DNA of 64,000 nucleotides from Bacteroidota bacterium (GCA_031400515.1 JANNQA010000042.1:4814-68813), one strand, 5' to 3'; numbered from the stretch's first letter, positions 5,406 through 36,364 are shown. Notes: a model not told the origin generated them from the letters alone. Numbers and translations: made by a program.

Positions 5406-5857
5406 TCCGCTTCGACAAGGTTTTTGATTCCTTCAAGAATAGGATTCCATCCTTCACCACCATTGTAGGATTCGTTGTACCGTCGTTCGCCATCAGCGAC
5501 TTTCGCATAATCACCCTGAGTGACTGTAAGAAGTGTGTTTCCTGCTTCGCCGGACAATCGATATGTGACCGTGAGATAGTTTTCGGGAAGATCTTCGATA
5601 TCAGAATTCGGATCAATCACGGTGTAAGCAAGGTATTTCCCAGGTTCAATTTCCACAATGTGGCCGCTCACGAAGATCACTTCCTTGCCCTCGTACTCAC
5701 CCTTCCACAGCAACGTGCTTCCCTTCTTCCAATCAGACACTGTCTCACAGCCGAACATATATTGTTTCGTCTTCTCCGGATTTACCAGCGCATCCCAGAC
5801 TTTCATAGCGGGAGCATTGATGACAATTTCGTTTTGTATGAATAATGCGCTTGACAT
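5402..5857 (-). CDS. SRPBCC / AHSA1-family protein
   Basis: 151 aa with the pattern …APAMKVWDALVNPEKTKQYMFG… and a C-terminal …GGEGWNPILEGIKNLVE typical of the Aha1/BPI START-like family. Confidence 0.75.
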   Translation of the reverse strand: MSSALFIQNEIVINAPAMKVWDALVNPEKTKQYMFGCETVSDWKKGSTLLWKGEYEGKEVIFVSGHIVEIEPGKYLAYTVIDPNSDIEDLPENYLTVTYRLSGEAGNTLLTVTQGDYAKVADGERRYNESYNGGEGWNPILEGIKNLVEAE

Positions 5858-5982
5858 AGATGACTGATATTAACTGTAATTCGAGATGTATGATTCAAAT
5901 GTATCGCTTTATGAAAATAGTGAAGGGTGATGAGTCACGCGTTTTAATCCTCATAGAATCCTATACGATCCCAACTCCTAAC

Positions 5983-7503
5983 TCATTTTTGTTTTTGATT
6001 CACAGTTGTTGCCTTGAACGTCCCTTCCGGCTGAATGGAATACATCGCTATTGGCTTTCCATCTTCCATTTCGAAGCGGACCTTATAACCACTGAGATTC
6101 CTGATACTAAATTCATGTTCGCCTGCTGGTACAAGTTCATACTCAGGTTGTCCCGGAGCGAACATCATCACTTTGTCTTCTGTGATATAGGTTTTTACTA
6201 CCATACCGGTGAAATCAAATTCTCCTGCGTATTGTTGCAGCTCAATGACACTCAACATCAGAGGGGTGACACCCTGAAGTTCATTCAATTTTTGTCTTGA
6301 AAATGGATTTTCTTTCAAGGCTAGCGCTTTTTCAAAATTCGCTACGGCATTCGCGGTATCACCTTTTGCTACAAAAAAATCGCCATACGAATCATACACA
6401 TTATAGCTCTCCGGATAGTTGGCGACGTTCAGTTTGAAAAAACTTTCCGCTTTTACGTACAACTTTGAATTCAATGCTTCATACCCAAAAGTATTCATCA
6501 TATTTTCAGAGGGACTGACTTTATACCCAAGATGCCGGGAAATATTTTTGAAATGGGTTTCATGTTTATTAGCTAAACGCGCCGTAGAATCTGTCCAATC
6601 TTCGAAGCTGAGTTTCAACCGGTAAAAATCAAATATAAAACGCAGTGCATCGTATTCAGCAATCAATGGAACGCTACCATGATCATCATTTTCATAGTAA
6701 TTGCCCTGGTATCTCAATCCGTTTTTCGTATTCTCTTTAAGGGAGCGGTCTAATTGAATTATAGATCTGATATGTGCTGTGCTTTGGGAAGTATCACTTA
6801 TTACGTGACGTACATTCATACCATCTTCCATTGTATTGGCATAGCCCAGATACAATGAAACACCATCGTATTTTTTATTGGCCAGGGCCTTTTGGGTTTC
6901 TTTTAAAAAATTCATCTTGTCATACCACATGCTTGGATCTATACACACATAGGCATTGAATAATCCCGGGTGATTGATCAGTGAATGCATGACGGCCAGT
7001 CCACCAAACGAATGTCCAATGAGCATTTTATACGGGCTGGTAGGAAACATAGAGTCAATGTGAGGTGCTAACTCTTTTTCAATAAACGAGATGAAGTTCT
7101 CACCTCCGCCCGTCGTCACAGAAAACGTGCTATCCATAAAAGGAGGATCACTTTCTATATGCGTAGGCGTCAGATCCCTGGTCCTGTCGGTGTTTGGTAT
7201 GCCTACGACAATCATTTCAGGGCAAATCGTATTGCCATTCACCTGGCTCAACTGCTGAATCATGCCTACTACCGAATAAAAATGCGCATCGCCATCCAAT
7301 AGATAAACCACAGGATAACGTTGCTGCGCATAAATGCCATTTTCTGTATCAGCATTGGGAATATATACCCACACTTTTCTTTCCTCATTCAAGATAGAGG
7401 AATAGACGCTGTCAATCTTGCCAATGACAATCTTGTTTTCTGTTTGTGCAGAAGTAAACAACGAGATGACAAGTAAAAGGATAGAAAAAGATAATGTCTT
7501 CAT
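5983..7503 (-). CDS. Secreted alpha/beta-hydrolase (putative esterase family) with a C-terminal TPR-like region
   Basis: 506 aa with a signal peptide, the serine nucleophile motif GHSFGG, and the YPVVYLLDGD pattern of esterase D / enterochelin-esterase-like proteins. Confidence 0.75.
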   Translation of the reverse strand: MKTLSFSILLLVISLFTSAQTENKIVIGKIDSVYSSILNEERKVWVYIPNADTENGIYAQQRYPVVYLLDGDAHFYSVVGMIQQLSQVNGNTICPEMIVVGIPNTDRTRDLTPTHIESDPPFMDSTFSVTTGGGENFISFIEKELAPHIDSMFPTSPYKMLIGHSFGGLAVMHSLINHPGLFNAYVCIDPSMWYDKMNFLKETQKALANKKYDGVSLYLGYANTMEDGMNVRHVISDTSQSTAHIRSIIQLDRSLKENTKNGLRYQGNYYENDDHGSVPLIAEYDALRFIFDFYRLKLSFEDWTDSTARLANKHETHFKNISRHLGYKVSPSENMMNTFGYEALNSKLYVKAESFFKLNVANYPESYNVYDSYGDFFVAKGDTANAVANFEKALALKENPFSRQKLNELQGVTPLMLSVIELQQYAGEFDFTGMVVKTYITEDKVMMFAPGQPEYELVPAGEHEFSIRNLSGYKVRFEMEDGKPIAMYSIQPEGTFKATTVNQKQK

Positions 7504-7618
7504 AAGATTAATACATGATTTCGATAAAAGAGAAGCTGAAAGAAACGGGTGAAGGAATTGAGACAGAGTAATTCACAGTGTGCGCAAAATACGGTTTCAT
7601 TTGCTAGAGTTCGCCTCG

Positions 7619-8050
7619 ACTTTTTGCTCTTCACACCCCGTCCGGCGCCATAGGCTATGGCCGTCCGCGTGCCGTCGTAGCTTCGTCCGGCGCCATAGGC
7701 TCTGGCCGACGGCGTCAGCGGAGGAGCGTGGAGACCAGTCCCTCGACAAGGGGAGAGCTACCCACAAAGCCAGACATTATAGCAAAAGATTTTATTAGAA
7801 TTGATAATCGACAATTGAAAATCGAGCCTTGCCTGCCGGCCTCGCTCTGCGCTCCGTCGCCGTAGCCGGCTTTGGCGCAGGCGCCCGAAGTGGCTACGCG
7901 AAGGCGATGCAGGCAGGAATCCTCATTTCCCTTGATCTGCTTTTTGCTCTTCATACCCCCAACCCCTCGACGAGGGGAGAGCTCACCCCCAAAGCCGGAC
8001 TTATAGCAAAAGATTTTATTTGAATTGATAATCGACAATTGAAAATCGAG
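7619..8050. repeat. Two copies of a roughly 110-bp intergenic element, the first interrupted by a nested duplicated insert
   Basis: The head ctttttgctcttca(c/t)acccc occurs at 7619 and 7939. The body ccctcgac(a/g)aggggagagct…atagcaaaagattttatt(a/t)gaattgataatcgacaattgaaaatcgag occurs at 7739-7825 and 7963-8050. The insert at 7639-7738 contains gtccggcgccataggct twice. Confidence 0.85.
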
Positions 8051-21965: not shown

Positions 21966-22583
21966 TTATTCTGTTAAGACGTCAGCTAAGTTCTTAAAAT
22001 ATTCAGTCAAGATAATAAACAACAACGTGTTACTACTTCTTTTTTTTTGTACTAACAGATCAGCCATGGTAGGGTTAAGAGAGGCAAGATATCCCAATTG
22101 ATCCTTTACGAATTTCTCAAATTTTGCAATTGCATTGTGAGATCTGTGTGCAATAGCGTTACGGATTACAACCAGTTCGTACATTTTATCACTGGATAGA
22201 TTGATCTTTTGAACTCTCGAATTAGACCTGAAATGATCTTCAATTCTTTGTCTAAGAATTGTTGAATCTAACCAGTCAATGTAATCCTTGTCCCGATCTC
22301 TTCTATTCATATTTATTTTTCTAAAAGCGATAGATAAGTTATTATATGGAGTATGTAACGGTTTTATTATTTTATTTGACCTCGTCTTGCAGGAACAAAG
22401 GCATCTTAAAAAATACTCTTCAATGAATAATTCCCAGCAAACTACAAATCTGATATAACAACCTTCAATTAAAGTATCCCTTCTTAAACTTGGCTGATCG
22501 GTAGATACGGACTTTACAATTGATTCGAGTTCTTCAACCTGTCCAACAAGCCTATCGTATATGCTAGTTAATGCGTAAGCCAC
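21966..22583 (-). CDS. HEPN-domain protein (predicted RNase-type effector)
   Basis: 205 aa and all-helical in appearance. The Rx4H motif RNAIAH is at residues 141-146 (nt 22146-22163). The GTG start directly abuts the TAA of the DUF262 gene. Confidence 0.6.
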   Translation of the reverse strand: MAYALTSIYDRLVGQVEELESIVKSVSTDQPSLRRDTLIEGCYIRFVVCWELFIEEYFLRCLCSCKTRSNKIIKPLHTPYNNLSIAFRKINMNRRDRDKDYIDWLDSTILRQRIEDHFRSNSRVQKINLSSDKMYELVVIRNAIAHRSHNAIAKFEKFVKDQLGYLASLNPTMADLLVQKKRSSNTLLFIILTEYFKNLADVLTE

Positions 22584-23615
22584 TTAGACTATGAGTTTCG
22601 AAATTTCAGTATGTCTGAACATTCTCTGCGCCACGTTTCCAGTGGCTTGCTTGAATTCAGCTTTCATGATAGGGTCAAATTCCCTTCTTTGATAATTAAT
22701 ACTGAACTTCTCTAAGCGCTTTATACTTTGTTCAGTATTCACATGCCCTGTTTTCTCATTTACTTTTCCTTCAAAACCAAACAGTCTGGCATAGACCACG
22801 AGAAAAAGTGAATAAAACATAAACTTAGGGCTGAATACAGTTCTTATATGTTTAGATTCTAGTAGATGTCCAAGAATGCTAATAGTTTTGGTAAACCTCT
22901 CATAAAGACCTTTACGATTTGGTAGATTTTCTTCGTATCTCGCGTACATTTTGTCAACTCCAGATGCACTAGCTGACTTAATTCCACTTATCACAGTATA
23001 AAGAATCTCTGAAACTAAAAGCGCATCGGCCATTCTCGCAATATTGTTCTCTGAAAGGATCTTGAATTGTATCCAAAAAGTGTTGTACTCTGATGCTATT
23101 TCATACACTAAGGTCTTAAACTCACCCGCGAATTTTGAATTACGCTTTTCCTGTGTATTTAATGGGAGGCTAAACGAATTTAATCTGGAGAAAATAGAGA
23201 TGATGTCTGCCTCCGTTGCACCACGAATTGAAATAAATGAAACTTCAAAATCCTCATACTTTTGTTGTTCATTTTTTGGTAGTTCAGAGAATAGTAGCCC
23301 GGCGTAGTCTTCTTCTGAAATTACTTTAGTAAGTTTAAAATGATTGGCACTAAATTCAGTTACTATTGAAATCCTTTGTTGTCCATCTATAATTTCCTTT
23401 CTTCTTTCCCCCGCCTCATTAATATAGTCCCTGAGATATATTGGTGGAAGTGGAAAATTACTAAGTATTGTATCTATTAATGCGGTCTTAGCATTTTTTG
23501 GCCAACTAGTTCTTCTTCTTTGATACTTTGGCTGAATCACCATTTCTTTACTTTCAAGCAATCGTGTAATATCTCTGATACTATACATTCTCTGAGATAA
23601 TTGGATCTTACTCAT
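22584..23615 (-). CDS. DUF262 (ParB/GmrSD N-terminal-like) protein lacking a DUF1524 nuclease domain
   Basis: 343 aa with …VIQPKYQRRRTSW… and the signature IDGQQR (residues 76-81). No HNH/DUF1524-like His-Me motif is visible in the C-terminal half. Confidence 0.8.
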   Translation of the reverse strand: MSKIQLSQRMYSIRDITRLLESKEMVIQPKYQRRRTSWPKNAKTALIDTILSNFPLPPIYLRDYINEAGERRKEIIDGQQRISIVTEFSANHFKLTKVISEEDYAGLLFSELPKNEQQKYEDFEVSFISIRGATEADIISIFSRLNSFSLPLNTQEKRNSKFAGEFKTLVYEIASEYNTFWIQFKILSENNIARMADALLVSEILYTVISGIKSASASGVDKMYARYEENLPNRKGLYERFTKTISILGHLLESKHIRTVFSPKFMFYSLFLVVYARLFGFEGKVNEKTGHVNTEQSIKRLEKFSINYQRREFDPIMKAEFKQATGNVAQRMFRHTEISKLIV

Positions 23616-23798: not shown

Positions 23799-24110
23799 TT
23801 ACCTAACTATAGATAGAATTCCAAAATATTGAAGATCATCCTTACTCTCCAAACTCACCACATAAACTCCACTCACCAATCCCTTCAAACTCACTCTCGG
23901 ACTCTCCGGATCAAACCGCTGTGACAACACTTCCACGCCCTGCATATCCACAATCGTCAACACCCCTGCCTCCTCCGTCTTTACCTCGATATAATCCTTC
24001 GCCGGATTCGGATATATCTCCAACTCTCCCACAATCTCATCATCAACATCAGACACCACACATGTCTTACCTGGCAGATTCTCGTCCATCCACTCGAGCC
24101 TTGATGTACA
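23799..24110 (-). pseudogene. Orphan 3' fragment of a CotH-like gene (T9SS C-terminal sorting domain only)
   Basis: (RLE)WMDENLPGKTC…GELEIYPNPAKDYIEV…GVYVVSLES… is about 65% identical by hand count to the last 96 aa of the 28159..30198 gene. The upstream frame is broken by a stop. Confidence 0.8.
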
Positions 24111-24196: not shown

Positions 24197-26377
24197 TTAG
24201 TTCTTACCATGCCAATTGCGATAATCCCAGAGTCTATCGCCACCAAATGAAATGTCAATTACAAAACCGCCTTTTAGCTCTTCTGATTTTGGTGAATAGT
24301 AGCCTATTCCTATTGAATTATAACCGAATTTTCTTGGATAGTAAAAGGCAAGCGTCCAGACAGTTCCATATTTTACGAATTTTCTGTTCTCTTCCCCTGG
24401 AAAAAATGAGTCTTTAGGAGGTCTGATATAATCAGCTCGATTTCTCAGTATCAATGATAAATCACTTTCTTCTTCAACTTGATAGATTAAAGAAAGTAGT
24501 CTAACAAACTGTTCAGGCTCAAATTCTTTCCAGGTGTGACGGTAAACGCCAAAACCTTGAAGATGGAATTTTTGATTTAATGGCATGGAAAATTCCAAAC
24601 CGTGAGATGATATCCAATCTTCTTCACCAAGAGGCAGGTTGGCTTGGTCTGATATATTCAATTCAAATGCCTTTAAACTAATTGGAAACACTACTGAATT
24701 ATTAAGAATTAGTTGCGGGTATTTCCACTTTTTGTCCTTACCTGCCCCTGAATATAATAAGATTCTATTTGCTAATGAGGGGCTTTCAAATCCGCTATTG
24801 AGAGTTGTTGAGTTTTCTGCTATGCCGGGTAATGTACTTGGCTCCTCATTGATTTGCAAAGCTAAAACATATGGGATTGAAAGGTTAAACTCATACCTGT
24901 TATCGTACACATACTTGAGGTTTGAATAAATTTGCGTGGAGAGGTCTGAACTTGCAGCCTTCCAAATTCTTGTAGGATCGTAAATCTCTCGTCCACCTGT
25001 GTTGACGGAAAGTTCACCACTGAACGCAAACAAGTTCTTTCCCTCTGTCTTGGGGTACCATCCGGATGCTCGAATCAATGAAGGATTGCTCTTTGCTATT
25101 GTATAAAGACTTTGGGCGTTCTTGCAAACACAGGCGCTAGCTTCTTTATGATATAGGCTGTCAATTCTTACTTTTTCTTCCTTATTTAGTCTTTCTAACA
25201 AATCTTTTGACCAGGTTTTCGGTTCACCAAAACCAAGTGGGATTACCCACGATACTGCTTTTGAATTGGGGCGTGATTTGATTACCCCCTCTCGAATGGC
25301 AAAAGGATTCTTAAACAATACTTCTTCTGTCCATGGGTCGGTAAAGTTCTTGTCGCTGATGGGTAACGGTTCGTGGTTGTATGCAAAATGTGCCGAGACT
25401 CCCCCTGAAAGTGAATAACCATACGCAAGTCCCGGTATATGTACTCTCAAAGTAGGTATCTCTAAAGGCGTTTCTACCGTGTGAAGTTCAAATGCGTTTT
25501 CCCAGAAATCCAACATTTCATTCGTAGGTTTGCCTTTTAAAAAATCATTAAATAAACCAGAAAGGGTATATGCATTTTTTAATTCTTTTAAAACAGTGAA
25601 TTGCTTCGCAAGGGCTTCAAAGTTTTGGGAAATCAATTTAGCATACAAAGGAGAGGTGCGAAGAGGATCTTCTCTCAAGAGTTTTCTTATGTTTTCTTCA
25701 TCTGGGATAGTTGTTCCCATTGGTAACTGTACAAACTCATCAGAATGGTTCTTAATTCGTACCGTTACTGAAGTGGCAGCAATGCATTCGCCGCCTACGC
25801 GATAATTCACTTTGAACGGGAAGAACCAGGATCTGTCCCATTTGGATTCCCATATCTCTTTCCTTCTCCCATCCTTTTCACTATCAATTAAGAGGTCAGT
25901 CTCGCTTGGCAGTCCATCAATCCCTGAAGAGACGAATCCTTCCGACAATAGTTTTAATAACAAATCCGCTTCGAATACGATTCTCCCATAATCCGTTCCT
26001 TCGATTCCACCTGTGTATCTGACTTTTTGAATATCTAAATTTGCTGAACGATTAAATGGTTCAATACTCACTCCTGGGTCATTGCCAATAGTACTATTTA
26101 TGTTATTTCTACTCTTCAATGAAGATACAACCAAGTTGAGGCTTACACATGGACTATTTGGATCGCTTTCTCCAACTATTATTATGTCCCCAAGTGAATC
26201 ACTTGCAATTGCCCATATTTTGGTTATGTGCCCTACATTAATGACCTCATCACTTGCAAGCATATTTCTTGCGCAGGACAGCGAAAAAGCAATCAATCGA
26301 GGAGGTTGTTCAGATGATTGCGCAAAGCAGTTGTGAACGATTAATCCCAAAATAATCGAAACTAAATACTTTTTCAT
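24197..26377 (-). CDS. Large secreted hypothetical protein
   Basis: 726 aa with a signal peptide (MKKYLVSIILGLIVHNCFAQ). I cannot assign a confident family. It is the last gene of a 3-gene operon. Confidence 0.6.
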   Translation of the reverse strand: MKKYLVSIILGLIVHNCFAQSSEQPPRLIAFSLSCARNMLASDEVINVGHITKIWAIASDSLGDIIIVGESDPNSPCVSLNLVVSSLKSRNNINSTIGNDPGVSIEPFNRSANLDIQKVRYTGGIEGTDYGRIVFEADLLLKLLSEGFVSSGIDGLPSETDLLIDSEKDGRRKEIWESKWDRSWFFPFKVNYRVGGECIAATSVTVRIKNHSDEFVQLPMGTTIPDEENIRKLLREDPLRTSPLYAKLISQNFEALAKQFTVLKELKNAYTLSGLFNDFLKGKPTNEMLDFWENAFELHTVETPLEIPTLRVHIPGLAYGYSLSGGVSAHFAYNHEPLPISDKNFTDPWTEEVLFKNPFAIREGVIKSRPNSKAVSWVIPLGFGEPKTWSKDLLERLNKEEKVRIDSLYHKEASACVCKNAQSLYTIAKSNPSLIRASGWYPKTEGKNLFAFSGELSVNTGGREIYDPTRIWKAASSDLSTQIYSNLKYVYDNRYEFNLSIPYVLALQINEEPSTLPGIAENSTTLNSGFESPSLANRILLYSGAGKDKKWKYPQLILNNSVVFPISLKAFELNISDQANLPLGEEDWISSHGLEFSMPLNQKFHLQGFGVYRHTWKEFEPEQFVRLLSLIYQVEEESDLSLILRNRADYIRPPKDSFFPGEENRKFVKYGTVWTLAFYYPRKFGYNSIGIGYYSPKSEELKGGFVIDISFGGDRLWDYRNWHGKN

Positions 26378-26385
26378 TTTTTTTG

Positions 26386-27498
26386 CTAATTAATTTTCCA
26401 AGTTTTCGAAGGATAGTTTAGTAAAAACCAAGTTCCTGAAAGACTAGGAAGGCCTTCGATAAAAGTCTCTTTATTAATTCCTTCGATTTGGATTGAATAA
26501 ACTCCGCCTTTTAAACTATCAGCAAAATCATGCTGATTGGTATGAATAGTAGCTGGAGTGCTGTTAATCATTTTATCTATGCTATTTCCCAAATCAAAAG
26601 CAGTAGCACCAGCATATGTAACTGCGCCGATAATTTTAAACTGAGGAATAGGAATAGCCATTGCCAGTTTAGCAACACCACGTGCTTCTGTAATTGAATC
26701 AGGTGAAGAAAATAGTAAATCAAGTTTTGCAAATGGTGTATTAATTGCAAAAGGAGTAATGTCGAAAAACCCTTCTACATTACCAATTGTGTGGTACGCA
26801 ACCTTTATCCCGTTGTATGCCAAGGAAAAATCAGACTTTAGATTTATGGCTTTCTGGAATAAACTTATACAACCTTCTTCGTCTCCGCCAACTAATAAAA
26901 AACCTACACCTTTATTCACAAAAGCATCGGCCATATCAGTTTTGATTGAAAGTGCCAAATCCCAATCTGCTGTACACTGAAGACACATCGCTTCATTTTT
27001 TAATTTCGACCACACCCATTCATTTACACCTCTAGCATTTAGGGCCAAAAAATTGTTCGGAGATAGTTCTATTGCTTTTGTAAATTCTACGTTAGCGCTA
27101 TCATACTTTTCTAATCTTGCCAATGCATCACCAAGTAAGTAATGAGAACTTGTAAAGCTAGGCTGGTTCAAAACTAATTCTTGGCAGAACGCTCGCCATT
27201 TTATCAAGGATTCGGAGTTCAGTGTATCACAAGCGCAGTAAAATTGATTCATCGCTTCATCGTAATTACCTAACGCAAGTGAAGTATGACCGTGTAATAA
27301 TCGAATAACTGGGTCCCCTTGACATATTTGATTTTTGTCCAATTTGCCTTGAAGTTTGGCAGAAGATTGCCAAGCTTCACGATAAATTTCATTTTCCAGA
27401 TAAAACTGAACTTGGCTCAAACTCTCAGTAACCTGACCTTCTAAAAATGGAGTGAAAATTGCGGAACAAAAAATGAAAATGATAACTATGATTTTCAT
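26386..27498 (-). CDS. Secreted TPR-repeat protein with an unrecognised C-terminal domain
   Basis: 370 aa with a signal peptide and TPR-like helical repeats (…GNYDEAMNQFYCA…, …KYDSANVEFTKAIELSPNNFLALNARG…). It lies 8 nt upstream of the next gene. Confidence 0.6.
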   Translation of the reverse strand: MKIIVIIFIFCSAIFTPFLEGQVTESLSQVQFYLENEIYREAWQSSAKLQGKLDKNQICQGDPVIRLLHGHTSLALGNYDEAMNQFYCACDTLNSESLIKWRAFCQELVLNQPSFTSSHYLLGDALARLEKYDSANVEFTKAIELSPNNFLALNARGVNEWVWSKLKNEAMCLQCTADWDLALSIKTDMADAFVNKGVGFLLVGGDEEGCISLFQKAINLKSDFSLAYNGIKVAYHTIGNVEGFFDITPFAINTPFAKLDLLFSSPDSITEARGVAKLAMAIPIPQFKIIGAVTYAGATAFDLGNSIDKMINSTPATIHTNQHDFADSLKGGVYSIQIEGINKETFIEGLPSLSGTWFLLNYPSKTWKIN

Positions 27499-27509
27499 TA
27501 TTAGTGAAT

Positions 27510-28013
27510 TTAATTGTTAATGAATTCGCTGTTAAAAACATCGACAGCTTTTTTAATTTGTTTTCTCTTTTTTATCGAACCGTAATAGGAAATTCCGGCA
27601 CTTACTGTCAGATTAATAGCGTCAACAACTGGAGTAGGGTTGCCATCATAATCACCGTCTCTTACTTGTTTAGCCTTCTTTATAGTATAGATAAAGGACT
27701 TGACTATCAGGGAGTAGAAAATTACCCGCCCACCAGTCTCCAGGGTTTGATACTGATAAGATTTTCTCAGCTCTCGAGCGGCATAAGGATTTGTCGCTAA
27801 AGCAGTTTTAAACTCATCGGTATATCCATACCCAAGCCCCAGCCAATGCTTTTCGATTGGTTTAGATTGTATCTCCCCAAATGAAAATTTTCCCTTCTTG
27901 AGTAATTGGATTGTTTCTCTTTTCAAGGTATCAGATACCACGGAGGCGTCTTGCCCAATAGATTGGATAAGAGCGAAAATCACGAGGTTCAGGGTTAGTA
28001 AGATATTTTTCAT
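27510..28013 (-). CDS. Small secreted hypothetical protein
   Basis: 167 aa with a signal peptide (MKNILLTLNLVIFALIQSIGQ). It lies 11 nt upstream of the TPR gene. Confidence 0.55.
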   Translation of the reverse strand: MKNILLTLNLVIFALIQSIGQDASVVSDTLKRETIQLLKKGKFSFGEIQSKPIEKHWLGLGYGYTDEFKTALATNPYAARELRKSYQYQTLETGGRVIFYSLIVKSFIYTIKKAKQVRDGDYDGNPTPVVDAINLTVSAGISYYGSIKKRKQIKKAVDVFNSEFINN

Positions 28014-28158
28014 TTGTTTATATCTAAGTAAATAATTTTTTCATTTTTAGCTTACGTTGGTTCTTATACCTGCGCAGTCCGTACCCTTCCCCTGAGCGCT
28101 GTTACATGCGCCTCGTTTTATACAATGGTGCTATAAGCTTCTAAAATAGAGGATTATA

Positions 28159-30198
28159 TCACTTATACTTTACGATCTTTCCTCGAAATGTCCCTGCATT
28201 AGCGGTCTCCAAACTCACCATATAAACTCCAGAACTTAATCCTCTAATATTAACCCTTGGACTCCCCGGATCAAACTCCTGTGAAATCACCTCCACCCCC
28301 TGAATAGCCACAATTCTCAATATACCCGCCTCCTCCGTTTGAATCTCCACATAATCACTCGCCGGATTCGGATAAATCTCCAATTCTCCAGCGATGAGAT
28401 CATGAGTACCTGAGGCAAGGCATGTCTTTCCAGGCAGATTCTCATCCATCCACCTGAGCCTTAATGACAACCAGTCGGAAAAGTAACCGACCTCCTCTGC
28501 GTAGGTGTTTCCAATGAAGAAGTTTGGCCAGACGTAGCGGGAGAGAATAGGCCAGCGCTCGTAGTTGCGGCTTTGCGTGGGTGCGAGAGTGTCGTACATA
28601 GAATCTATCCAGGCAGTGAGGACTTCTGTAGAAAGCACATTACGTCGCAATGAATCATACCGGCATCTCAACTGATCAGCATATGCAGGATCTTCAAGCA
28701 ACCTCGCCCACCACAATGGGGTATTACCGCATGCGCCGCTGTTGATATATGCCCATCCTTCGGTCGCCTGACAATTGCAATAGTCGACGTTGCCATACGC
28801 GAGATTGAAATCCCAGAGCGGACCAGCATGCAGAAGAGAGTCGATGGAATTTCGGTCTTTGAATAAGAAAGTGCTCAGACGGTATGCATCGACGTTGTGA
28901 CCTATTTCAGAAACAATGAAGAGATCAATAAATGACTCCACATCGATATAGGCGCGATATCCAACCTGCGGATCAGCAAAGTCCTTCCCATAGAGTGCAC
29001 GCTCAAACCTATCATAATAGTTCTCGATGTAGGCCTTCTGCTTAGGATGCAGATCCGGTCCTTCGGGATCTTCAAACACAACACGGATCTCCTGGTCCGC
29101 AAATGTCCCTTCATATTCTGAGACGAAGAACGAACCTTCACCATCATCGCGGTCAACTTTGAGGAGATATCCTCCGGTGAGTTTGTCGCCAGTGGTATCC
29201 TGCTCTTCGATCTTGGCGATGTTCACACGATTCTTGTCGCGCTTGATTTTTTCTTCGAGACAATAGACGCCATGATAATCGCCATTGAGAAATAATTCAC
29301 AGAAGACCGTGCGTGGCGCATAATGTCCCATGTCACGACCGAGTTTGTAAGTGAGTGCATCGCGGAGAAAACTCTTATCAGTATATGGTGCATACAGGAT
29401 CCAGTCCTCTTCTTTCGGCAGTCCGAGCAACTCTGTCTCGAGATCATCACCTTCTTCATCCCATGTCTCGAAGCCAAAACTTTTCTTGGGAAACTGTTGC
29501 GACGATGAGCCACGGACCTCGATGCCCAAATCAGAATCATGGATTGGTGTATCCGTGAGATAATTATCAAGACCCAGGTCATTATGAATGATGCGGATGC
29601 GTCCATGGATCTTCGGATCATCGGGAATGGTCAGTTGATCAGTAGTATTTAATATGACGATCGGCAGATGTGAGGATTCAAAATTCATTGGTGATGGTGC
29701 ATCGGGACCGAAAGTGATACTCCAGTCCAGTACTTCTCCGCCATCAGCGTATGCATAAGTATCGAGGACATGTAAAGTCCAGGTGCCATTGCCATCGCTG
29801 CCATTGTTCACAGTGCCGATTGGCGAGAACGGACGATACTTCGCTGTGTATGGAAAGCCACCATCAATAATGTGAACAGAGGTATCCATCGAGAAGCAGG
29901 TATTGAGATAGCCATCCTGATCACCACCGAGTGTCGCAGCGAGCATGATCGTCGTCCCATCCGGTGCAGTCAATCGCACATCGAGATCTGCCATCCACGT
30001 ATGCGTGATGTTGATACATACTTCTTTAAGACCAAAGCCTGCTGATAATGCAGATGACGGAAGATCATTGATACTGCGTGTATAAATGTTGTTCCTTCCA
30101 TCATCGTGGACGATGCCACCCGGGCCGAAGTAACTTTGGGAGAAACATGGGAAAGAAAGCAGGAAGAGGGATAGGAGGGGGAGTGTTTTGATGTGCAT
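28159..30198 (-). CDS. Secreted CotH-family protein with an N-terminal proprotein-convertase P-domain and a T9SS C-terminal sorting domain
   Basis: 679 aa with a signal peptide and a P-domain pattern (…CINITHTWMADLDVRLTAPDGTTIML…). The CotH core is recognisable (…LRDALTYKLGRDMG…YHGVYCLEEKI…). The CTD reads …ELEIYPNPASDYVEI…GVYMVSL…. Confidence 0.8.
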   Translation of the reverse strand: MHIKTLPLLSLFLLSFPCFSQSYFGPGGIVHDDGRNNIYTRSINDLPSSALSAGFGLKEVCINITHTWMADLDVRLTAPDGTTIMLAATLGGDQDGYLNTCFSMDTSVHIIDGGFPYTAKYRPFSPIGTVNNGSDGNGTWTLHVLDTYAYADGGEVLDWSITFGPDAPSPMNFESSHLPIVILNTTDQLTIPDDPKIHGRIRIIHNDLGLDNYLTDTPIHDSDLGIEVRGSSSQQFPKKSFGFETWDEEGDDLETELLGLPKEEDWILYAPYTDKSFLRDALTYKLGRDMGHYAPRTVFCELFLNGDYHGVYCLEEKIKRDKNRVNIAKIEEQDTTGDKLTGGYLLKVDRDDGEGSFFVSEYEGTFADQEIRVVFEDPEGPDLHPKQKAYIENYYDRFERALYGKDFADPQVGYRAYIDVESFIDLFIVSEIGHNVDAYRLSTFLFKDRNSIDSLLHAGPLWDFNLAYGNVDYCNCQATEGWAYINSGACGNTPLWWARLLEDPAYADQLRCRYDSLRRNVLSTEVLTAWIDSMYDTLAPTQSRNYERWPILSRYVWPNFFIGNTYAEEVGYFSDWLSLRLRWMDENLPGKTCLASGTHDLIAGELEIYPNPASDYVEIQTEEAGILRIVAIQGVEVISQEFDPGSPRVNIRGLSSGVYMVSLETANAGTFRGKIVKYK

Positions 30199-30369
30199 AG
30201 AAGAAATGTTACGAGGTACGTGTTACGAGGAAATCGGAATTTAATTAAAATGAAAATTAAAATAAAAAGGGGGAAAGGATCAACCGCCTTCGCCTGCTTC
30301 GGCGGTCGAGGACGGATCAACGGATCAAGAAGAGATCAATTCACTTCGAGACATCCGCAAGGTACCGCG

Positions 30370-30700
30370 CGAAACCTAGCAGGTTAGCTCTACCCAAGGC
30401 CGCGTGAAACCCCGCCCGACTGAAACGTCGTTCGGGCGGGCTGCCAGGTTAGCCCCACCCAAGGCCACACGAAACCATGCAGGTTAGCTCTACCCAGGGC
30501 CGCGTGAAACCCCGCCCGAGTGTACGTCGTTCGGGCGGGCTGCCAGGTTAGCCAACCATTGAACTGAAAGGGTAAGGGCGTATTTCCATTGAAGTACTTA
30601 GCTAACCTTGCAGGTTTAGCTGGGCAATGAGCGCTAGCAACACCTGCAAGGTTTAGCGCGGGTATGTGCACGCGGGGATACCTGCAAGGTTTAGCTGGGG
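30370..30700. repeat. Array of REP-like hairpin repeats
   Basis: The unit aggttagctctaccca(a/g)ggccgcgtgaaaccccgcccga…tcgggcgggctgccaggttagcc occurs twice (30381-30454 and 30481-30553). The word acctgcaaggtttagc occurs three times. Confidence 0.85.
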
Positions 30701-31034: not shown

Positions 31035-34000
31035 TCAATCTTTTATCCCCTTCGCACTTCTATCCTCATACGGAGGACGCTTCTTTGTCACCCGCGGTTT
31101 TGTTTCAATCAACTTCATCGCTTCATCGATAGCGCGTTTCAATTGCGGATCATTTCCTTTTGCGAGTTCCGCAGGATCATCCCAGACTTCGATCGATGGT
31201 TCTATGCCATGCCCTTCGGCAAACCACTTTCCGTCCTGACCATAGAGTCGTGCATCCGGGACAGTGATGCCGCCATTGTCGATCAGTTGATGCCCTGTTG
31301 CAGGGCCCACTAAAATTCCTAATGTTCTTTCTCCGATAATAGGCCCGAGGTTCATTTGCTGGAAACCCCATGGGAATGCGTCACCACCGGAACCAGCCCA
31401 GCCGTTGATCAGCATCACTTTAGGTCCGTCGTTTCCTTTGATCGGCCATGCCATATCTCTTCCGTTGCGCCAGCCGATATAATAGAGTGAAGAACGGTTG
31501 AGCATTTCAAGAAAACGATCGGCGAGTTGACCTCCGGCATTAAAACGTTCATCGATGATGAATCCTTTTTTGTCAATCTGTCCATAGAACTGTCGCAACA
31601 ATTCTGTCTGACCATCTTCTCCGGTGTTCGGCATGTACATATACGCGAGTTGACCATTGGAAAGTGTCTCGACAGTTTTGCGATTGCCTTCGATCCATTC
31701 AAGATGTCTGAGTCTTGCTTCCTGCTGAGGAGTCAATGCTTCGATGATGACTTCTTTCGCATCTGCTCCTGAAGCGACTTTACTGATGCGTAATGAGATT
31801 GTTTTTCCGGATAGACCTTCGAACGCTGCATAGGGATCCGTCAAAGGATTTAGTTCTTTTCCATTCACGGATAAAATAAAATCACCTTCACTGACTTCTC
31901 TACCAGGGCGATCAAATGGTGAGCGTACTTCATTGTCCCATGCTGCCGGTTTTACGATCCGTTTGATTTTATACTTATTCTGATCGAGTGTCCAATCGAT
32001 GCCAAGAAAACCAGTGGGTTTTGATTCGGTCTGTTCTATATCACCGCCACCCGCATAGGTATGTCCTGCGCTGAGGTCTGAAATGAGTTCAATCAGAATA
32101 TTGCTGACATCCCATCGTGTGATCGCATAATCGATCAGTGGTCCGTATTGATTTTTCATTGCATTCCAATCCACTTGTTGCATCGCAGGATCGTAGAAGA
32201 AATCGCGATATCGTCTCCAGGTATCCGTGAAGATCTGCCGCCATTCATCGCGTGGCGTGAGCGTCATTGTCATCTCATCTGTACGCAACGTCTTTTCGAG
32301 TTTCTGATCTGCACCGACACTGATGATGCCATAGCGATTGTCCACATTGACAAGGATGGATTTCTCATCTACTGTGATATCATATCTGCCGACGTTGCCG
32401 AGGATCGTTTTCTCTTCGCGTGCTTCAAGGTCATAATACATTAATGGTGCATCACCTCCCGCGCTCCCTGTATTCGGATATCGCTGATAGATGATTTTTC
32501 CTTTCACGGCGCTCAGTTCTCCGAAATTTCCCGCACTGATTGGCAGTATGACCAGACGACTTTCAAAGTCCGCCAGATCAATTTTTACGTTGAGTGAGTC
32601 TTTCTTTACATCTTCTTTTTCTTCTGCTTTGCCTGCTTTTCCTTTTTTCTCTGCTTTTCCGGTTTTACCTATGTCACCGTCTTCACCAGTTTCCCCGGCT
32701 TTCCCTGCTTCCCCGGTTTCCCCCTCTTTTTTGATTTCAACCGTATCATTCCTTACATAAAGCGGCGATTTTGTTTTTTCCGTCAGACTTACTGCAGCGA
32801 TTTGTGTTGAGTTTGGATAAATCCATGTACCGTCGAGATTGCTGTATACCGGAGACAATGAACGGTCGGTATAGAAGTACAGATATTTTCCTTCGGGATC
32901 AAAGACAGGATAATTGTCATTATAGAAACCGGCTGTGAGTTGTGAAGCAGTTTTTGTAGTGAGATTATAGACATACAGTGCTTCATTCAGATTGTCCAAT
33001 GTTTTTGAATAAGCAAGCCATTGATTGTCGGCAGACCAACTGATGAGGAATCCTGCCAGTTGATTATACACAAGTTGATTCGTGCGATCAGCGATGATCA
33101 TCTGTCCGCTAGAAATGTCGAGGATGTTGATCTGTTGCATGTAATCCACAAATGCGAGTTTCTTACTGTCTGGTGACCAGAATAAACGGAATCCAAAACC
33201 GCTGGTGAATTTTGTGAGTTGTTTCTCCGGAGATTTGCCATCCGTGGCGAGCAGATAGATCTGGTATTCGCCATTCCTGTCGCTCCAGTAGGCGATCTGT
33301 TTTCCATCGGGTGACCATGCGGGGATCCTGTCAAATGCTCCGCTTGAGTTGGTTATGTTCTGGATATATCCATGTTCGGCAGGGAGGTTGAAGATCTCAC
33401 CACGAGCTTCCATCACGATACGCTTGCCATCGGGTGATACGTCCATTGCATTGATCATCGAATTCACTTTCACCGTACGTGACATGATGGAAGCGACGTC
33501 AGCAATGATCTTGATGTCCACTGGTTTATAGTCGTGTGTATCCGTGTTGAGGAGATATAAACGGCCGCCTGCTTCGAAGACGATTTCGGTTGGACCCAAT
33601 GACATATGATTGATATCAAAGTCACTGAAGAATGTCACTTGTTCACGTTTATTAGTTGTGGTGTGATATACCCAGACATTCCTTCTCTTGCTTTCGCCGA
33701 TATCGGAGACGTAGTAGATTTTATCCTTGTGCCATGCAGGTTTACCATCAGTAGCTGCATTGCTGGTGATATTTTCTGCAGTGTTCGTTGCAAGATCATA
33801 GATGATCACATCCGAGGCCAGACCGCCACGATATCTTTTGAAAGGATAATTCTCAGTGATGCGGGTGACGTACGCGAGTTTTGATCCATCAGGTGAGAAA
33901 CTTCCGAGTTCGCCATAGGGGATTGAGAGTTTTTGCGGCAAACCACCATTTGTAGAAGCGAGATAGAACTGACCATAAGCCTGTGTACCACTTTCTCTGC

Positions 34001-34373
34001 GGGAAACAATCAAGAGTCGGTTGCCATCGGGATGCCAGTCGACCATGCGGTCTGAAAATGAATGATAGGTCAGACGTTGTGGGCTACCTCCCGTCAATGA
34101 CATCGTGTATATATCAACGTTGCCATTATAATTTGCACTATAGCCTATCGTATTTCCATCGGGAGAAAAGCGTGGAAACGATTCTTCGCCGGGAGATGAT
34201 GAGATCTTGAAAGCAGTACCACCTGACTTCGGAACCAGCCAGATATCACCACCGTAGACAAACGTGATTTGAGTAGCAGAGACATCTGGATAGCGAAAGA
34301 GCCGGGCATCGGTTTGAGTGAATGCAACGCTGGCTATTGCCAAGCAACAGCATACGAGGAAAGATTTTTTCAT
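31035..34373 (-). CDS. Tricorn-protease-like S41 peptidase (beta-propeller + PDZ + S41 domains)
   Basis: 1112 aa from the Met at 34373 (MKKSFLVCCCLAIASVAFTQ signal peptide). The pattern RYPDVSATQITFVYGGDIWLV…FSPDG… is typical of tricorn homologs, and the C-terminus is S41-like. Confidence 0.85.
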   Translation of the reverse strand: MKKSFLVCCCLAIASVAFTQTDARLFRYPDVSATQITFVYGGDIWLVPKSGGTAFKISSSPGEESFPRFSPDGNTIGYSANYNGNVDIYTMSLTGGSPQRLTYHSFSDRMVDWHPDGNRLLIVSRRESGTQAYGQFYLASTNGGLPQKLSIPYGELGSFSPDGSKLAYVTRITENYPFKRYRGGLASDVIIYDLATNTAENITSNAATDGKPAWHKDKIYYVSDIGESKRRNVWVYHTTTNKREQVTFFSDFDINHMSLGPTEIVFEAGGRLYLLNTDTHDYKPVDIKIIADVASIMSRTVKVNSMINAMDVSPDGKRIVMEARGEIFNLPAEHGYIQNITNSSGAFDRIPAWSPDGKQIAYWSDRNGEYQIYLLATDGKSPEKQLTKFTSGFGFRLFWSPDSKKLAFVDYMQQINILDISSGQMIIADRTNQLVYNQLAGFLISWSADNQWLAYSKTLDNLNEALYVYNLTTKTASQLTAGFYNDNYPVFDPEGKYLYFYTDRSLSPVYSNLDGTWIYPNSTQIAAVSLTEKTKSPLYVRNDTVEIKKEGETGEAGKAGETGEDGDIGKTGKAEKKGKAGKAEEKEDVKKDSLNVKIDLADFESRLVILPISAGNFGELSAVKGKIIYQRYPNTGSAGGDAPLMYYDLEAREEKTILGNVGRYDITVDEKSILVNVDNRYGIISVGADQKLEKTLRTDEMTMTLTPRDEWRQIFTDTWRRYRDFFYDPAMQQVDWNAMKNQYGPLIDYAITRWDVSNILIELISDLSAGHTYAGGGDIEQTESKPTGFLGIDWTLDQNKYKIKRIVKPAAWDNEVRSPFDRPGREVSEGDFILSVNGKELNPLTDPYAAFEGLSGKTISLRISKVASGADAKEVIIEALTPQQEARLRHLEWIEGNRKTVETLSNGQLAYMYMPNTGEDGQTELLRQFYGQIDKKGFIIDERFNAGGQLADRFLEMLNRSSLYYIGWRNGRDMAWPIKGNDGPKVMLINGWAGSGGDAFPWGFQQMNLGPIIGERTLGILVGPATGHQLIDNGGITVPDARLYGQDGKWFAEGHGIEPSIEVWDDPAELAKGNDPQLKRAIDEAMKLIETKPRVTKKRPPYEDRSAKGIKD

Positions 34374-34729
34374 AGAAACAAGGATATTTTGAAGTGAGGT
34401 CAAGATAGCTGAATTCATAAACTGTGATGGCAGATATAGCATTAAGGGAGAAGCAGTGGGGAAGGAGATAGGTAGCAAAAGATCAAGACAGCCCAGCCAG
34501 GAGTTGAATTTCGACGCCCGCCTGACTGCGCTTTCGCGAAGCTTCAGCGGAGCGAAGCCGGACGGGCAGGAAATTCGAACGGCAATAATATGTTTCCCGT
34601 TCATTCCTAACCATTTGAGTTTTTGTCTGATTACGATCGACCCATTTTTATCTGGCACATCGCTCTAGTGCTTTTCTTTTAATAATCAGTTGAACCTGGC
34701 TTCAGGGAAATCTAAAAATGGCCCCGAAC

Positions 34730-36364
34730 CTATTCCTTCGCCACCATTTTGGCAGTGAGATATTTCAGGAACTTCGAATTTTCGTAGACATGCCAGAATT
34801 TCTCTTCTTTTGGTATTGTAGCAGTCGACAAACCTAAGTTTAGAATTAAGACATCTCCGAGCTGTAAAATCGAGCCACTTTTGGGATAGTCAGGAATTGA
34901 ATTTTGAACAGCATAGTTTTTATATTCTTCCAACTGGCTTCTTTTGAAGAAATCTACATTCACTCCCTGCAGCGTTAACTGATTCGCAATCTTTGTTTCT
35001 ACACCAAATCCTGCAAATCCCACCGGTGCAAGTTGTAGATCATTATGAACTTTTGCTTTAGGAAATGGATCAGAGAGATCGTAATTACTATTATTGACGA
35101 GAGCGCCGACAAATGCAATTTTAGTCTTGCCCTTCACATACCCTTCATGGCTGAGGATGTCGTGCATAATATGACTTGCTAATCGCTGCCCTGCATCCAA
35201 CTTCAATGTGTACTTCAATGCAATCGCATTATCTGTCCGGATATTTAACAGAATAAACAATGCGCCCATGATATAGGCGATAGGTTTTAGCCGGTCACCG
35301 AATAATCTGACTGTGTACAACACGAGTAGAGTAGCAAGAATGATAATACCGAATTGAAAACCGGGATAAGGCCACGTCTCGAATGTCACGAGATAAATGG
35401 ACAATGCACCGATAAGCATCGCACAGATAAGGAACACTGCGTACAGACTCCTTCCAAAAGCGAAATTGGTTTTTCCACTCATGATGCGAAACATGCCGAA
35501 CAGACCCAGTACAAAAAAAATCTTGTACCAGATACTGGCCATCAGAACATATAGACCATGGAGGAGAAATGTCCACATCAATTTGTGTGGAAGTTTTGTG
35601 AGGAGCACAGGGATACTCAATTCATCCGCGTTTTTGTATGACATCAGCTTAAGGCCGAGAAATGCAATCATACCTTTTGTGGCAAGAAAATATAGCAATA
35701 AGCCAAGCGCACAAATGCCCATAGACTTCAGAAACAATACCATGTTCTGCCGGATCTGAGGATTCTTCGTAAAAGCATGAATGACATAAAACATGTAAAG
35801 CACTGTCGCAACTGAAAATAATGCCGGATAGCAACCCAGTGCCAGTACAATAAGAATGACCGACACGATATAGGCAGATAATGTGTGTCTGGTGAAAGAC
35901 AGGAGTGAAAAGAAGATCAATACCATGCCGCTGCCATATACTTCTGCGTCGCCGGTAAAATAGATGTAGTGAATAAAGAGAGGCAACGTCATAAATATGC
36001 CACCCGTCAAAATGCGTTCAGCGCGTCCTTTGATCTCAAAAATATACCAGAGTAACAGTGTGCAGAGCAAAAGCAACAACACTACTAAAATGCCATGAAA
36101 CAGCGGTAAGCGAAAGGATGAAAAATACAGGTTTGAGAAAAACGCGTACATCCATCTTCCTTTTACAAGTCCGGATTCAAATGAAATGTCAATTTCAGAT
36201 ACACGTAGAATCCCATCGTTATTGTAGGTAAATGAGAAAAATGAATACCCATATGTCAGGAAGCCAATAAGCAGAATTGCAAGGGAACAGATGACAAGTT
36301 CTTTTTTTCTAACCGGGGTCATCTCTTTCAGAAAGGTCGATAGGGATTGGATTGAAGCAAGCAT
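34730..36364 (-). CDS. Polytopic membrane protein, possibly a GtrII-like glucosyltransferase
   Basis: 544 aa with about 11 TM helices and a soluble C-terminal domain. The functional call is weak. Confidence 0.45.
   Translation of the reverse strand: MLASIQSLSTFLKEMTPVRKKELVICSLAILLIGFLTYGYSFFSFTYNNDGILRVSEIDISFESGLVKGRWMYAFFSNLYFSSFRLPLFHGILVVLLLLLCTLLLWYIFEIKGRAERILTGGIFMTLPLFIHYIYFTGDAEVYGSGMVLIFFSLLSFTRHTLSAYIVSVILIVLALGCYPALFSVATVLYMFYVIHAFTKNPQIRQNMVLFLKSMGICALGLLLYFLATKGMIAFLGLKLMSYKNADELSIPVLLTKLPHKLMWTFLLHGLYVLMASIWYKIFFVLGLFGMFRIMSGKTNFAFGRSLYAVFLICAMLIGALSIYLVTFETWPYPGFQFGIIILATLLVLYTVRLFGDRLKPIAYIMGALFILLNIRTDNAIALKYTLKLDAGQRLASHIMHDILSHEGYVKGKTKIAFVGALVNNSNYDLSDPFPKAKVHNDLQLAPVGFAGFGVETKIANQLTLQGVNVDFFKRSQLEEYKNYAVQNSIPDYPKSGSILQLGDVLILNLGLSTATIPKEEKFWHVYENSKFLKYLTAKMVAKE

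Follow-up and report, generated by a model that had tools for sequence, protein, structure and literature searches.

Small gated outer-membrane (OM) barrels with periplasmic control domains have recently been recognised as a route by which unfolded polypeptides cross the OM. One of these is FapF, which serves secretion in the Pseudomonas Fap functional-amyloid system. Its barrel has 12 strands and is gated by a plug that an N-terminal helix forms, and its periplasmic N-terminal domain regulates secretion and is required for it (PMC5557850). Another 12-stranded barrel is that of the COG4313 channels, known from Pseudomonas putida (4rl8), which consist of the barrel only. Slam (type XI), BcsC, PgaA, PelB, and AlgK-AlgE combine an OM barrel with periplasmic TPR repeats, the TPR part of BcsC, PgaA, and Slam being well known to lie in the periplasm. 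Here we analyse three adjacent genes, A, B, and C (Table 1), in a 64,000-nucleotide stretch of DNA, hereafter the window, from a Bacteroidota bacterium (GCA_031400515.1, JANNQA010000042.1:4814-68813). As in the latter systems, the trio appears to associate an OM barrel, in C, with a periplasmic TPR partner, B, and the likeness of this barrel to FapF and COG4313 is one of predicted fold alone. The three proteins are a rare set but conserved together in other genomes, and probably form a gated channel or an anchoring complex in the OM.

The largest protein, C, could not be assigned with confidence to any family by an earlier reading of the sequence alone, and we also found no match in Pfam, NCBIfam, PADLOC, or the PDB (sequence and profile searches). 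Among 5.8 billion protein clusters, only 15 clusters of close relatives were retrieved by a word-indexed search, all full length (707-762 aa) and 29-75% identical. Such full-length homologues occur in independent metagenomes, and a Pfam scan at E<=5 of the window protein and 14 close homologues gave nothing consistent. The alignment of the family (A1) displays two conserved blocks, the first made of the N-domain motifs and the second, C-terminal, rich in invariant Gly, Pro, and Trp. In the full-length AlphaFold model (predicted local distance difference test, pLDDT, 71.6; predicted template modelling score, pTM, 0.63) an alpha/beta N-domain (residues 27-385) is followed by a poorly modelled linker and by 14 strands, in line with the beta-rich C-terminal half remarked on by the sequence-only reading.

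When this model was compared to the PDB with Foldseek, matches were confined to the barrel. The best is FapF (5o67, E 3.8e-9, template modelling (TM) score 0.57-0.61 normalised by target) and the second the COG4313 channel 4rl8 (E 3.9e-6, TM 0.59 normalised by target), with FadL/TodX, autotransporter beta-domains, porins, AlgE, and BcsC ranking lower. The strands have alternating sequences, and most C homologues terminate in …LWDxRxWF, whose RxWF ending resembles the beta-signal of outer-membrane proteins (OMPs), an aromatic C-terminus being typical of OM beta-barrels. The C-terminal half of C is predicted on these grounds to be an OM beta-barrel. Moreover, it may be more than an anchor, since it is about as conserved as the N-domain and many of its Gly, Pro, and Trp positions do not vary. 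W440, T444, and F452 are the same in all sequences of A1, and P442 and G446 in nearly all; the conserved GWxPxTEGxNL segment right before strand 1 is a candidate plug or latch. In the relatives that we call P0067-type, a block of TPR repeats is inserted at the position of the linker, between N-domain and barrel.

C and FapF have a similar general layout, in which an N-terminal part, periplasmic in FapF and presumably so in C, precedes a helix-containing linker and a small barrel. However, no sequence similarity between them was detected (PDB sequence and profile searches; Pfam, with C and 14 homologues), FapF has 12 strands against the 14 assigned by DSSP in the model of C, whose pre-barrel region has pLDDT <60, and the periplasmic part of FapF is a 40-residue trimeric coiled coil, whereas the putative periplasmic part of C is a globular domain of 360 aa. 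Concerning the Fap partners FapA-E (amyloid subunits, chaperone, and C39 protease), none is present in the loci examined, where the partners are instead a TPR protein and a novel helical protein. The likeness to the COG4313 channels is restricted to the predicted barrel fold, as C has no sequence-family match and there is no aromatic-degradation gene context around the trio. Differences also exist with the TPR-plus-barrel exporters: C has an additional large non-TPR domain, and no adjacent polysaccharide-synthesis genes were found. P0067-type relatives come close to the Slam and BcsC arrangement, with TPR and barrel in one chain, whereas in the window the TPR part is a separate protein. Slam has a 14-stranded DUF560 barrel and an adjacent gene for its surface-lipoprotein cargo, whereas the barrel of C matches neither DUF560 nor any other Pfam barrel, and no lipoprotein gene is conserved next to the trio.

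In one locus, L018, a single stop codon interrupts the C homologue (5821-8037) at the very junction of its two parts, separating the N-domain (5821-7035) from the barrel (7039-8037). The split could reflect a sequencing error or a pseudogene, or it could be a genuine two-gene version. Half-length proteins also occur in the representative library and carry either the N-domain alone (P0054) or the barrel alone (P0058).

Modelled alone from 78 sequences, the N-domain reaches a pLDDT of 88 and a pTM of 0.87, and no significant structural neighbour could be found with Foldseek (best E 0.16 in the PDB and 0.13 in BFVD, TM <=0.27). The weak top matches (Arp3, FN3K/APH kinases, OXA beta-lactamases) were considered as relatives and rejected as noise. 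Judging from the model, this is a well-defined domain of ~360 aa without a solved structural relative. Among its conserved motifs, FEADLLLK is preceded by YG (YG…FEADLLLK, A1). A profile search without word index of 1.84 billion representatives, clustered at 50% identity, showed that the N-domain belongs to a large superfamily, with 1,962 representative proteins at E<=1e-3, 292 of them at E<=1e-30, mostly matching the N-domain alone. Of the proteins listed, about 45 match the C barrel as well; ~1,900 have no barrel and only signal peptides. In these barrel-less proteins (460-1,550 aa) the N-domain always comes right after the signal peptide, sometimes as a tandem duplicate. In 31 of 46 distant relatives, canonical TPR repeats are fused C-terminally to it, and the TPR parts of 19 of the 46 match TPR_Slam at E<=0.01, the one match shown in full (P0086) scoring 32 bits, under the Pfam cutoff of 35.2 bits. 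We could not identify any shared partner or barrel gene in the genomic context of barrel-less N-domain/TPR relatives (L014 and L015).

A weak resemblance of the N-terminal third of C to DUF1598-type proteins had been suggested from its sequence. This stands at the level of the superfamily, as 27 of the 46 distant relatives match DUF1598 (PF07643) at E<=0.01 (best E 2.5e-6), the matches shown in full scoring 17.7-24.8 bits, under the 25-bit gathering threshold. It does not hold for the window protein or its 14 close homologues, which give no match even at E<=5; sequence comparison thus points to a relationship at superfamily level only. DUF1598, the sole relative that bears a name, is itself an uncharacterised 84-residue model, and our literature search found no paper mentioning DUF1598 or PF07643. 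The C-terminal half of the model is matched by the distant relatives at the YG…FEADxLLK helix, and covers ~45 of the ~360 residues of the N-domain.

Several members of the superfamily have an architecture quite unlike that of the barrel-bearing family: P0076, P0079, P0087-P0098, and others are proteins of 1,000-1,250 aa with two tandem N-domain copies, several of which end in repeats that look YD/RHS-like by eye (e.g. …YRYDAAGRL…), with a sub-threshold RHS_repeat match in P0089.

The TPR-like repeats previously noticed in B were recovered by Pfam at residues 118-157 (TPR_11, E 3e-9). The family alignment (A5, 17 sequences) delimits a TPR-like region at about residues 25-245, with conserved cysteines and the motifs GH…G, FYCxxDS, YLLGDALAR, LALNARGV, and FADAxAN, then a linker that varies from ~30 to ~130 residues, and finally a C-terminal motif. 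In this motif G332, N342, T356, Y362, and P363 are invariant across the 17 sequences and G331, G340, W357, F358, and N361 nearly so; outside of it, the proteins are only 23-36% identical. A strongly conserved motif at the end of a variable linker can be read as a flexibly tethered docking peptide. In every locus examined, the B gene lies immediately upstream of a C homologue, and a P0067 relative, despite its internal TPR block, still keeps a separate B gene. We also considered that GTWFxLNYP of B might be a copy of the RSWFFP strand of C, which was ruled out by hhalign (probability of 0.3% between the two profiles); the motif has no homologous counterpart in C.

Protein A has no match in Pfam, NCBIfam, or PADLOC, and a PDB profile search with its family found none either; a word search retrieved only two close relatives. 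Its core is a helical region of ~120 aa with two long hydrophobic or amphipathic helices, and aligns with proteins encoded just upstream of B in other loci. Some of these are small (169 aa in L008, 214 aa in L005), and in three loci (L003, L004, and L006) the protein at the same position has 364-389 aa, A being homologous to its N-terminal half, and its C-terminal half being an OMP_b-brl_2 barrel (E down to 3e-19). We propose from these alignments that A represents a new domain of ~120 aa. Barrels with an even number of strands have both termini on the periplasmic side, so that a domain preceding such a barrel in the chain would be periplasmic, and A would therefore be a periplasmic protein, tethered to the OM in some lineages.

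The leaders of all three proteins open with a few basic residues (n-region), continue with a hydrophobic core, and end at G/A|Q, with putative cleavage sites SIG|QDAS (A), LEG|QVTE (B), and CFA|QSSE (C) read from the translations. The N-terminal signal peptides seen by the sequence-only reading are thus recovered, and appear to be of the signal-peptidase-I type; none of the three sites has the cysteine of a lipobox. Leaders of Bacteroidota prefer a Gln at position +1, which those of A, B, and C would fit. When compared to the 68-75% identical orthologues of L001, the ratios of nonsynonymous to synonymous substitution rates (dN/dS) are 0.13 for A, 0.07 for B, and 0.05 for C, with dS saturated; on this sequence evidence all three are real genes under purifying selection.

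Conservation of the trio as a unit in other genomes, which the sequence-only reading had proposed to measure, was confirmed. The order A-B-C is kept in the window, in the Saprospiraceae-like loci L001/L002/L012 and L010/L011 (69-75% identity), and in L003, L004, L005, L006/L016, L008, L017, L018, and L019, i.e. in 9-10 independent metagenomic lineages with unrelated flanks (L003 and L019 have identical B proteins and may be one lineage). B and C are preceded by a different gene in L009 and L013. A scan of GTDB species genomes, with a narrow search pattern, returned one locus, in an uncultured Saprospiraceae metagenome-assembled genome (MAG), a metagenome scan returned three further trios, and an Ignavibacteria MAG is also among the sources of C homologues. 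Chance adjacency of the three genes is ruled out by the synteny and the dN/dS values. In close relatives the cassette has a histidine kinase/LytTR pair on one side and a CNNM/CorC gene on the other, and in the window it sits inside a CotH duplication. Relative to the flanks, its guanine-plus-cytosine (GC) content is reduced in the window and in L001/L010, L005, L006, and L008, whereas L003, L004, L009, and L013 show no such reduction. Because the flanks are unrelated, the GC content is usually lower, and the location differs among related Saprospiraceae-like genomes, the comparison supports a self-contained, horizontally mobile module. The earlier proposal of an uncharacterised envelope or OM complex acquired as a unit is therefore strengthened by the conservation of the trio, its predicted OM barrel, its low GC content, and its bracketing by CotH 3' ends. 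We found no established joint function in known families for the three proteins, and no paper describing such a three-protein module in keyword searches of the literature.

Two-component regulators adjoin the cassette in three lineages, namely a histidine kinase and LytTR in L001/L010 (2008-5073, or 4814-7879), a histidine kinase and a sigma-54 activator in L005 (88-4084), and a GerE response regulator in L006 (767-1387), which hints at regulated expression; in the window, the trio has no adjacent regulator. Small genes encoding exported proteins are found next to the trio in L001 (5325-6585), L005 (4351-4827), L006 (1899-3476), and L013 (4144-4608 and 8671-9441). Three of these proteins have an aromatic, OMP-like end (…FGILMNF, …GVAVKF, …RLQVTY), and two have a transmembrane helix followed by a Lys-rich stretch. 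As those upstream of the trio are unrelated to one another and have no counterpart in the window, a conserved fourth gene or cargo was rejected for the loci compared. They may be lineage-specific accessory parts or cargo.

Our best reading of these data, to which we give a probability of roughly 0.4, is that of a mobile OM complex working as a plug-gated, FapF-like conduit with periplasmic adaptors. C would be inserted in the OM by its small C-terminal barrel (about 12-14 strands) of FapF/COG4313-like type, with the DUF1598-related N-domain and the linker hanging in the periplasm, and the GWxPxTEGxNL and helix segment before strand 1 would serve as plug or latch of the barrel lumen, like the plug helix of FapF. 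B would be a periplasmic TPR adaptor docking on the N-domain or the linker of C, probably via its tethered C-terminal motif, and A a periplasmic helical subunit, whose domain other lineages would tether by an 8-stranded OmpA-like barrel of its own. Together, the three proteins would form a gated conduit through which an unfolded polypeptide, or else a molecule of hydrophobic or amphipathic character, crosses the OM. Capture of the cargo and control of the gating would fall to the periplasmic parts, and the cargo would be encoded outside of the cassette. We favour this reading because the nearest folds are transport channels, because the barrel and GWxPxTEGxNL are as conserved as the N-domain, and because pairs of TPR protein and barrel are the usual architecture of OM exporters. 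The periplasmic side of the N-domain and of A is suggested by the TPR block between N-domain and barrel in P0067-type proteins, by the fusion of the A-domain N-terminal to OMP_b-brl_2, and by the barrel-less state of most N-domain relatives, and a link of B with C by the frequent TPR fusions to the N-domain and by the near invariance of the B motif.

A number of observations weigh against such a conduit. The full-length model of C is moderately confident, and its linker and plug region falls under 60; the position of the plug and the side on which the N-domain lies are inferred rather than read off the model. The model has two strands more than FapF and COG4313, TM normalised by target is only ~0.6, and in the clade of the window the C-terminus runs past the aromatic residue (…NWHGKN). 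No cargo or substrate gene is conserved beside the trio in the loci compared, and the upstream accessory genes of L001, L005, L006, and L013 are not mutually homologous and have no counterpart in the window. Finally, most members of the superfamily make use of the N-domain in proteins that have no barrel, and the biochemical role of this domain may therefore be unrelated to transport.

This last point leads to a possible, if rather unlikely, alternative, in which the trio would be an OM-anchored periplasmic scaffold or enzyme complex and the barrels would only tether it. The DUF1598-related domain and the TPR protein would then act on a target such as peptidoglycan, other OMPs, or a stress signal, resembling LpoA or TPR scaffolds of the NlpI type. 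Most N-domain relatives are indeed composed of the N-domain and TPR repeats, with a signal peptide only; A occurs either free or tethered to a barrel, which looks like interchangeable anchoring; no cargo gene is conserved in the loci compared; and the two-component regulators adjacent to the cassette in L001/L010, L005, and L006 would suit a regulated envelope function. However, the conservation of the barrel and of the pre-barrel GWxPxTEG exceeds what is expected for a simple anchor, and the best fold matches are transport channels (FapF, COG4313, FadL) rather than anchors of the OmpA/OmpX type. Moreover, the conserved polar residues of the N-domain are assigned to no known catalytic site, as the domain has no structural relative that would allow such an assignment.

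The order of a globular N-terminal part, a helix, and a small C-terminal barrel in C also fits the layout of type Va autotransporters, in which case the N-domain would be a passenger reaching the surface through the barrel or beside it, helix 391-411 would span the pore, and B and A would be periplasmic chaperones of the passenger. The barrel of FapF has itself been described as autotransporter-like (PMC5557850), and the beta-domains of EspP (2qom), Hbp (3aeh), and AIDA-I (4mee) are among the Foldseek matches, with E from 2e-4 to 1e-3. Nevertheless, these are weaker than FapF and COG4313, and none of 15 family members matches the Pfam Autotransporter domain (PF03797). In C, ~36 poorly modelled residues, including a conserved non-helical motif, separate helix 391-411 from strand 448, a segment that sets it apart from type Va proteins. 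TPR repeats lie between N-domain and barrel in relatives, most N-domain proteins are barrel-less, and the TPR insertions and the periplasmic partners argue, if indirectly, against a surface-exposed passenger. We therefore consider an autotransporter-like C quite unlikely.

It is very improbable that the trio completes a polysaccharide pathway by exporting its product across the OM, as AlgK-AlgE, PgaA, BcsC, or PelB do with their TPR and porin parts. Although a TPR protein is paired with an OM barrel and BcsC (9b8a) and AlgE (4b61) are among the Foldseek matches (E ~4e-4), TM to both is ~0.2, there are ~14 strands and not 16-18, and none of the loci examined has an adjacent gene for a glycosyltransferase, a synthase, or polymer modification; the only such gene nearby in the window, a GtrII-like one (34730-36364), is separated from the trio by the CotH and tricorn-like protease genes and has no counterpart in the other loci. 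Equally hard to credit is a cargo of a defence or variable island acting against phage, e.g. by receptor masking or abortive envelope damage, as the low GC content, the directly adjacent GmrSD_N/NsnA-like and HEPN gene pair, and the different locations in different genomes might suggest, given that A, B, and C are all exported envelope proteins without a PADLOC match and that in other loci the trio is flanked by housekeeping or regulatory genes and not by defence genes.

If the plug-gated conduit is correct, the cassette would pair a barrel of the FapF kind with three elements lacking characterised relatives, namely the N-domain, B, and A. New in this analysis are the N-domain model without a solved match, the recurrent fusion of TPR repeats to the N-domain, the fusion of A to a barrel in other lineages, and the C-terminal motif of B. 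The N-domain ties the cassette to ~1,960 clusters (50% identity) of uncharacterised exported N-domain/TPR proteins, so that solving one compact module could annotate the whole superfamily, and the apparent mobility of the cassette suggests a self-sufficient, transferable envelope function. A bolder proposal, which for now must be called unlikely, is that A-B-C are the core of a previously unrecognised OM translocation or assembly system, in which a plug-gated small barrel would be under periplasmic control by a fold absent from the PDB, with a TPR adaptor. It would give a first functional handle on ~2,000 clusters of DUF1598-related N-domain/TPR envelope proteins from many phyla.

Table 1. Coordinates of the trio, of the parts of its proteins, and of its immediate flanks, counted from the first nucleotide of the window.
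Feature	Position	Strand	Description
Gene A	27510..28013	minus	167-aa open reading frame (ORF); signal peptide and ~120-aa helical domain, family unassigned
Gene B	26386..27498	minus	370-aa ORF; signal peptide, TPR-like region, variable-length linker, C-terminal motif
C-terminal motif of B (residues 330-363)	26410..26511	minus	KGGVYSIQIEGINKETFIEGLPSLSGTWFLLNYP; consensus RGGV[YF]xxxKEGxNL…GTWFxLNYP
Gene C	24197..26377	minus	726-aa ORF; signal peptide, DUF1598-related N-domain, linker, predicted OM beta-barrel
N-domain of C (residues 24-385)	25223..26308	minus	alpha/beta; motifs AFSL, GE(R/S)D, PGVSIEP, FEADLLLK, RSWFFP
Linker of C (residues 386-447)	25037..25222	minus	helices 391-411 and 424-429, then conserved GWxPxTEGxNL before strand 1
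C-terminal beta-barrel of C, predicted (residues 448-721)	24215..25036	minus	14 predicted strands (DSSP); ends ...LWDYRNW, then HGKN
Intergenic region	28014..28158	minus	145 nt upstream of gene A; presumed operon promoter region
Direct repeat D1, upstream copy	28206..28466		3' end, with type IX secretion system (T9SS) sorting domain, of intact CotH-family gene
Direct repeat D1, downstream copy	23846..24106		orphan CotH 3' fragment keeping only the T9SS sorting domain

The three genes lie on the same strand with gaps of 11 nt between A and B (27499-27509) and 8 nt between B and C (26378-26385), as had been read from the sequence. The two copies of repeat D1 (261 nt, 76% identity) form an exact bracket around them. 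Upstream is an intact CotH-family gene (28159-30198) with CotH, P_proprotein, and Por_Secre_tail domains (Pfam), and downstream a 96-aa ORF (23799-24089) that is an orphan Por_Secre_tail fragment (E 5e-10, Pfam). Both neighbours carry the T9SS sorting domain, and A, B, and C match it neither in Pfam (PF18962) nor in NCBIfam (TIGR04183), an arrangement already pointed out by the sequence-only reading, together with the low GC content and the bracketing by CotH 3' ends. GC content is 0.381 in the trio, 0.437 in the window as a whole, and 0.478 in CotH. That the trio exactly fills the space between the CotH copies suggests that it was inserted into a tandem CotH paralogue or arrived by recombination through one. 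The orphan copy (23799-24106) comprises only the last ~100 codons of the CotH gene, and lies 4.36 kb downstream of the intact one.

Concerning expression signals, a sigma-70 scan, which does not model Bacteroidota promoters, gave 16 sites in the region upstream of gene A against 14.8 in shuffled sequence, and no promoter was identified; a terminator scan showed no enrichment over shuffled sequence, and Rfam has no match in the whole window.

Directly downstream of the orphan CotH fragment, two abutting genes on the minus strand (21966-23615, GC 0.348) encode a 343-aa GmrSD_N/DUF262 protein (22584-23615) that matches NsnA of PADLOC (E 1e-38), and a 205-aa partner whose HEPN RiboL-PSP match is just under the threshold (27.4 bits against a cutoff of 28.4); from these matches the pair looks like a two-gene anti-phage defence candidate. 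On the other side, a cluster of GC-rich intergenic repeats (30365-30700) lies between the CotH and tricorn-like protease genes, with a 30-nt unit recurring exactly 99 nt apart, units of ~58 nt at 90% identity, and hairpins (e.g. CCCGCCCGA…TCGGGCGGG). The cluster has no Rfam match and may be an element similar to repetitive extragenic palindromes (REP) or miniature inverted-repeat transposable elements (MITE). The tricorn-like protease itself (31035-34658, minus strand, 1,207 aa) has PD40 repeats and Tricorn_C1, PDZ_Tricorn, and Peptidase_S41 domains. Unusually, it contains an insert rich in Gly, Lys, and Glu (…EGETGEAGKAGETGEDGDIGKTGKAEKKGKAGKAEEKED…), and its likely true start is preceded by a long N-terminal extension.

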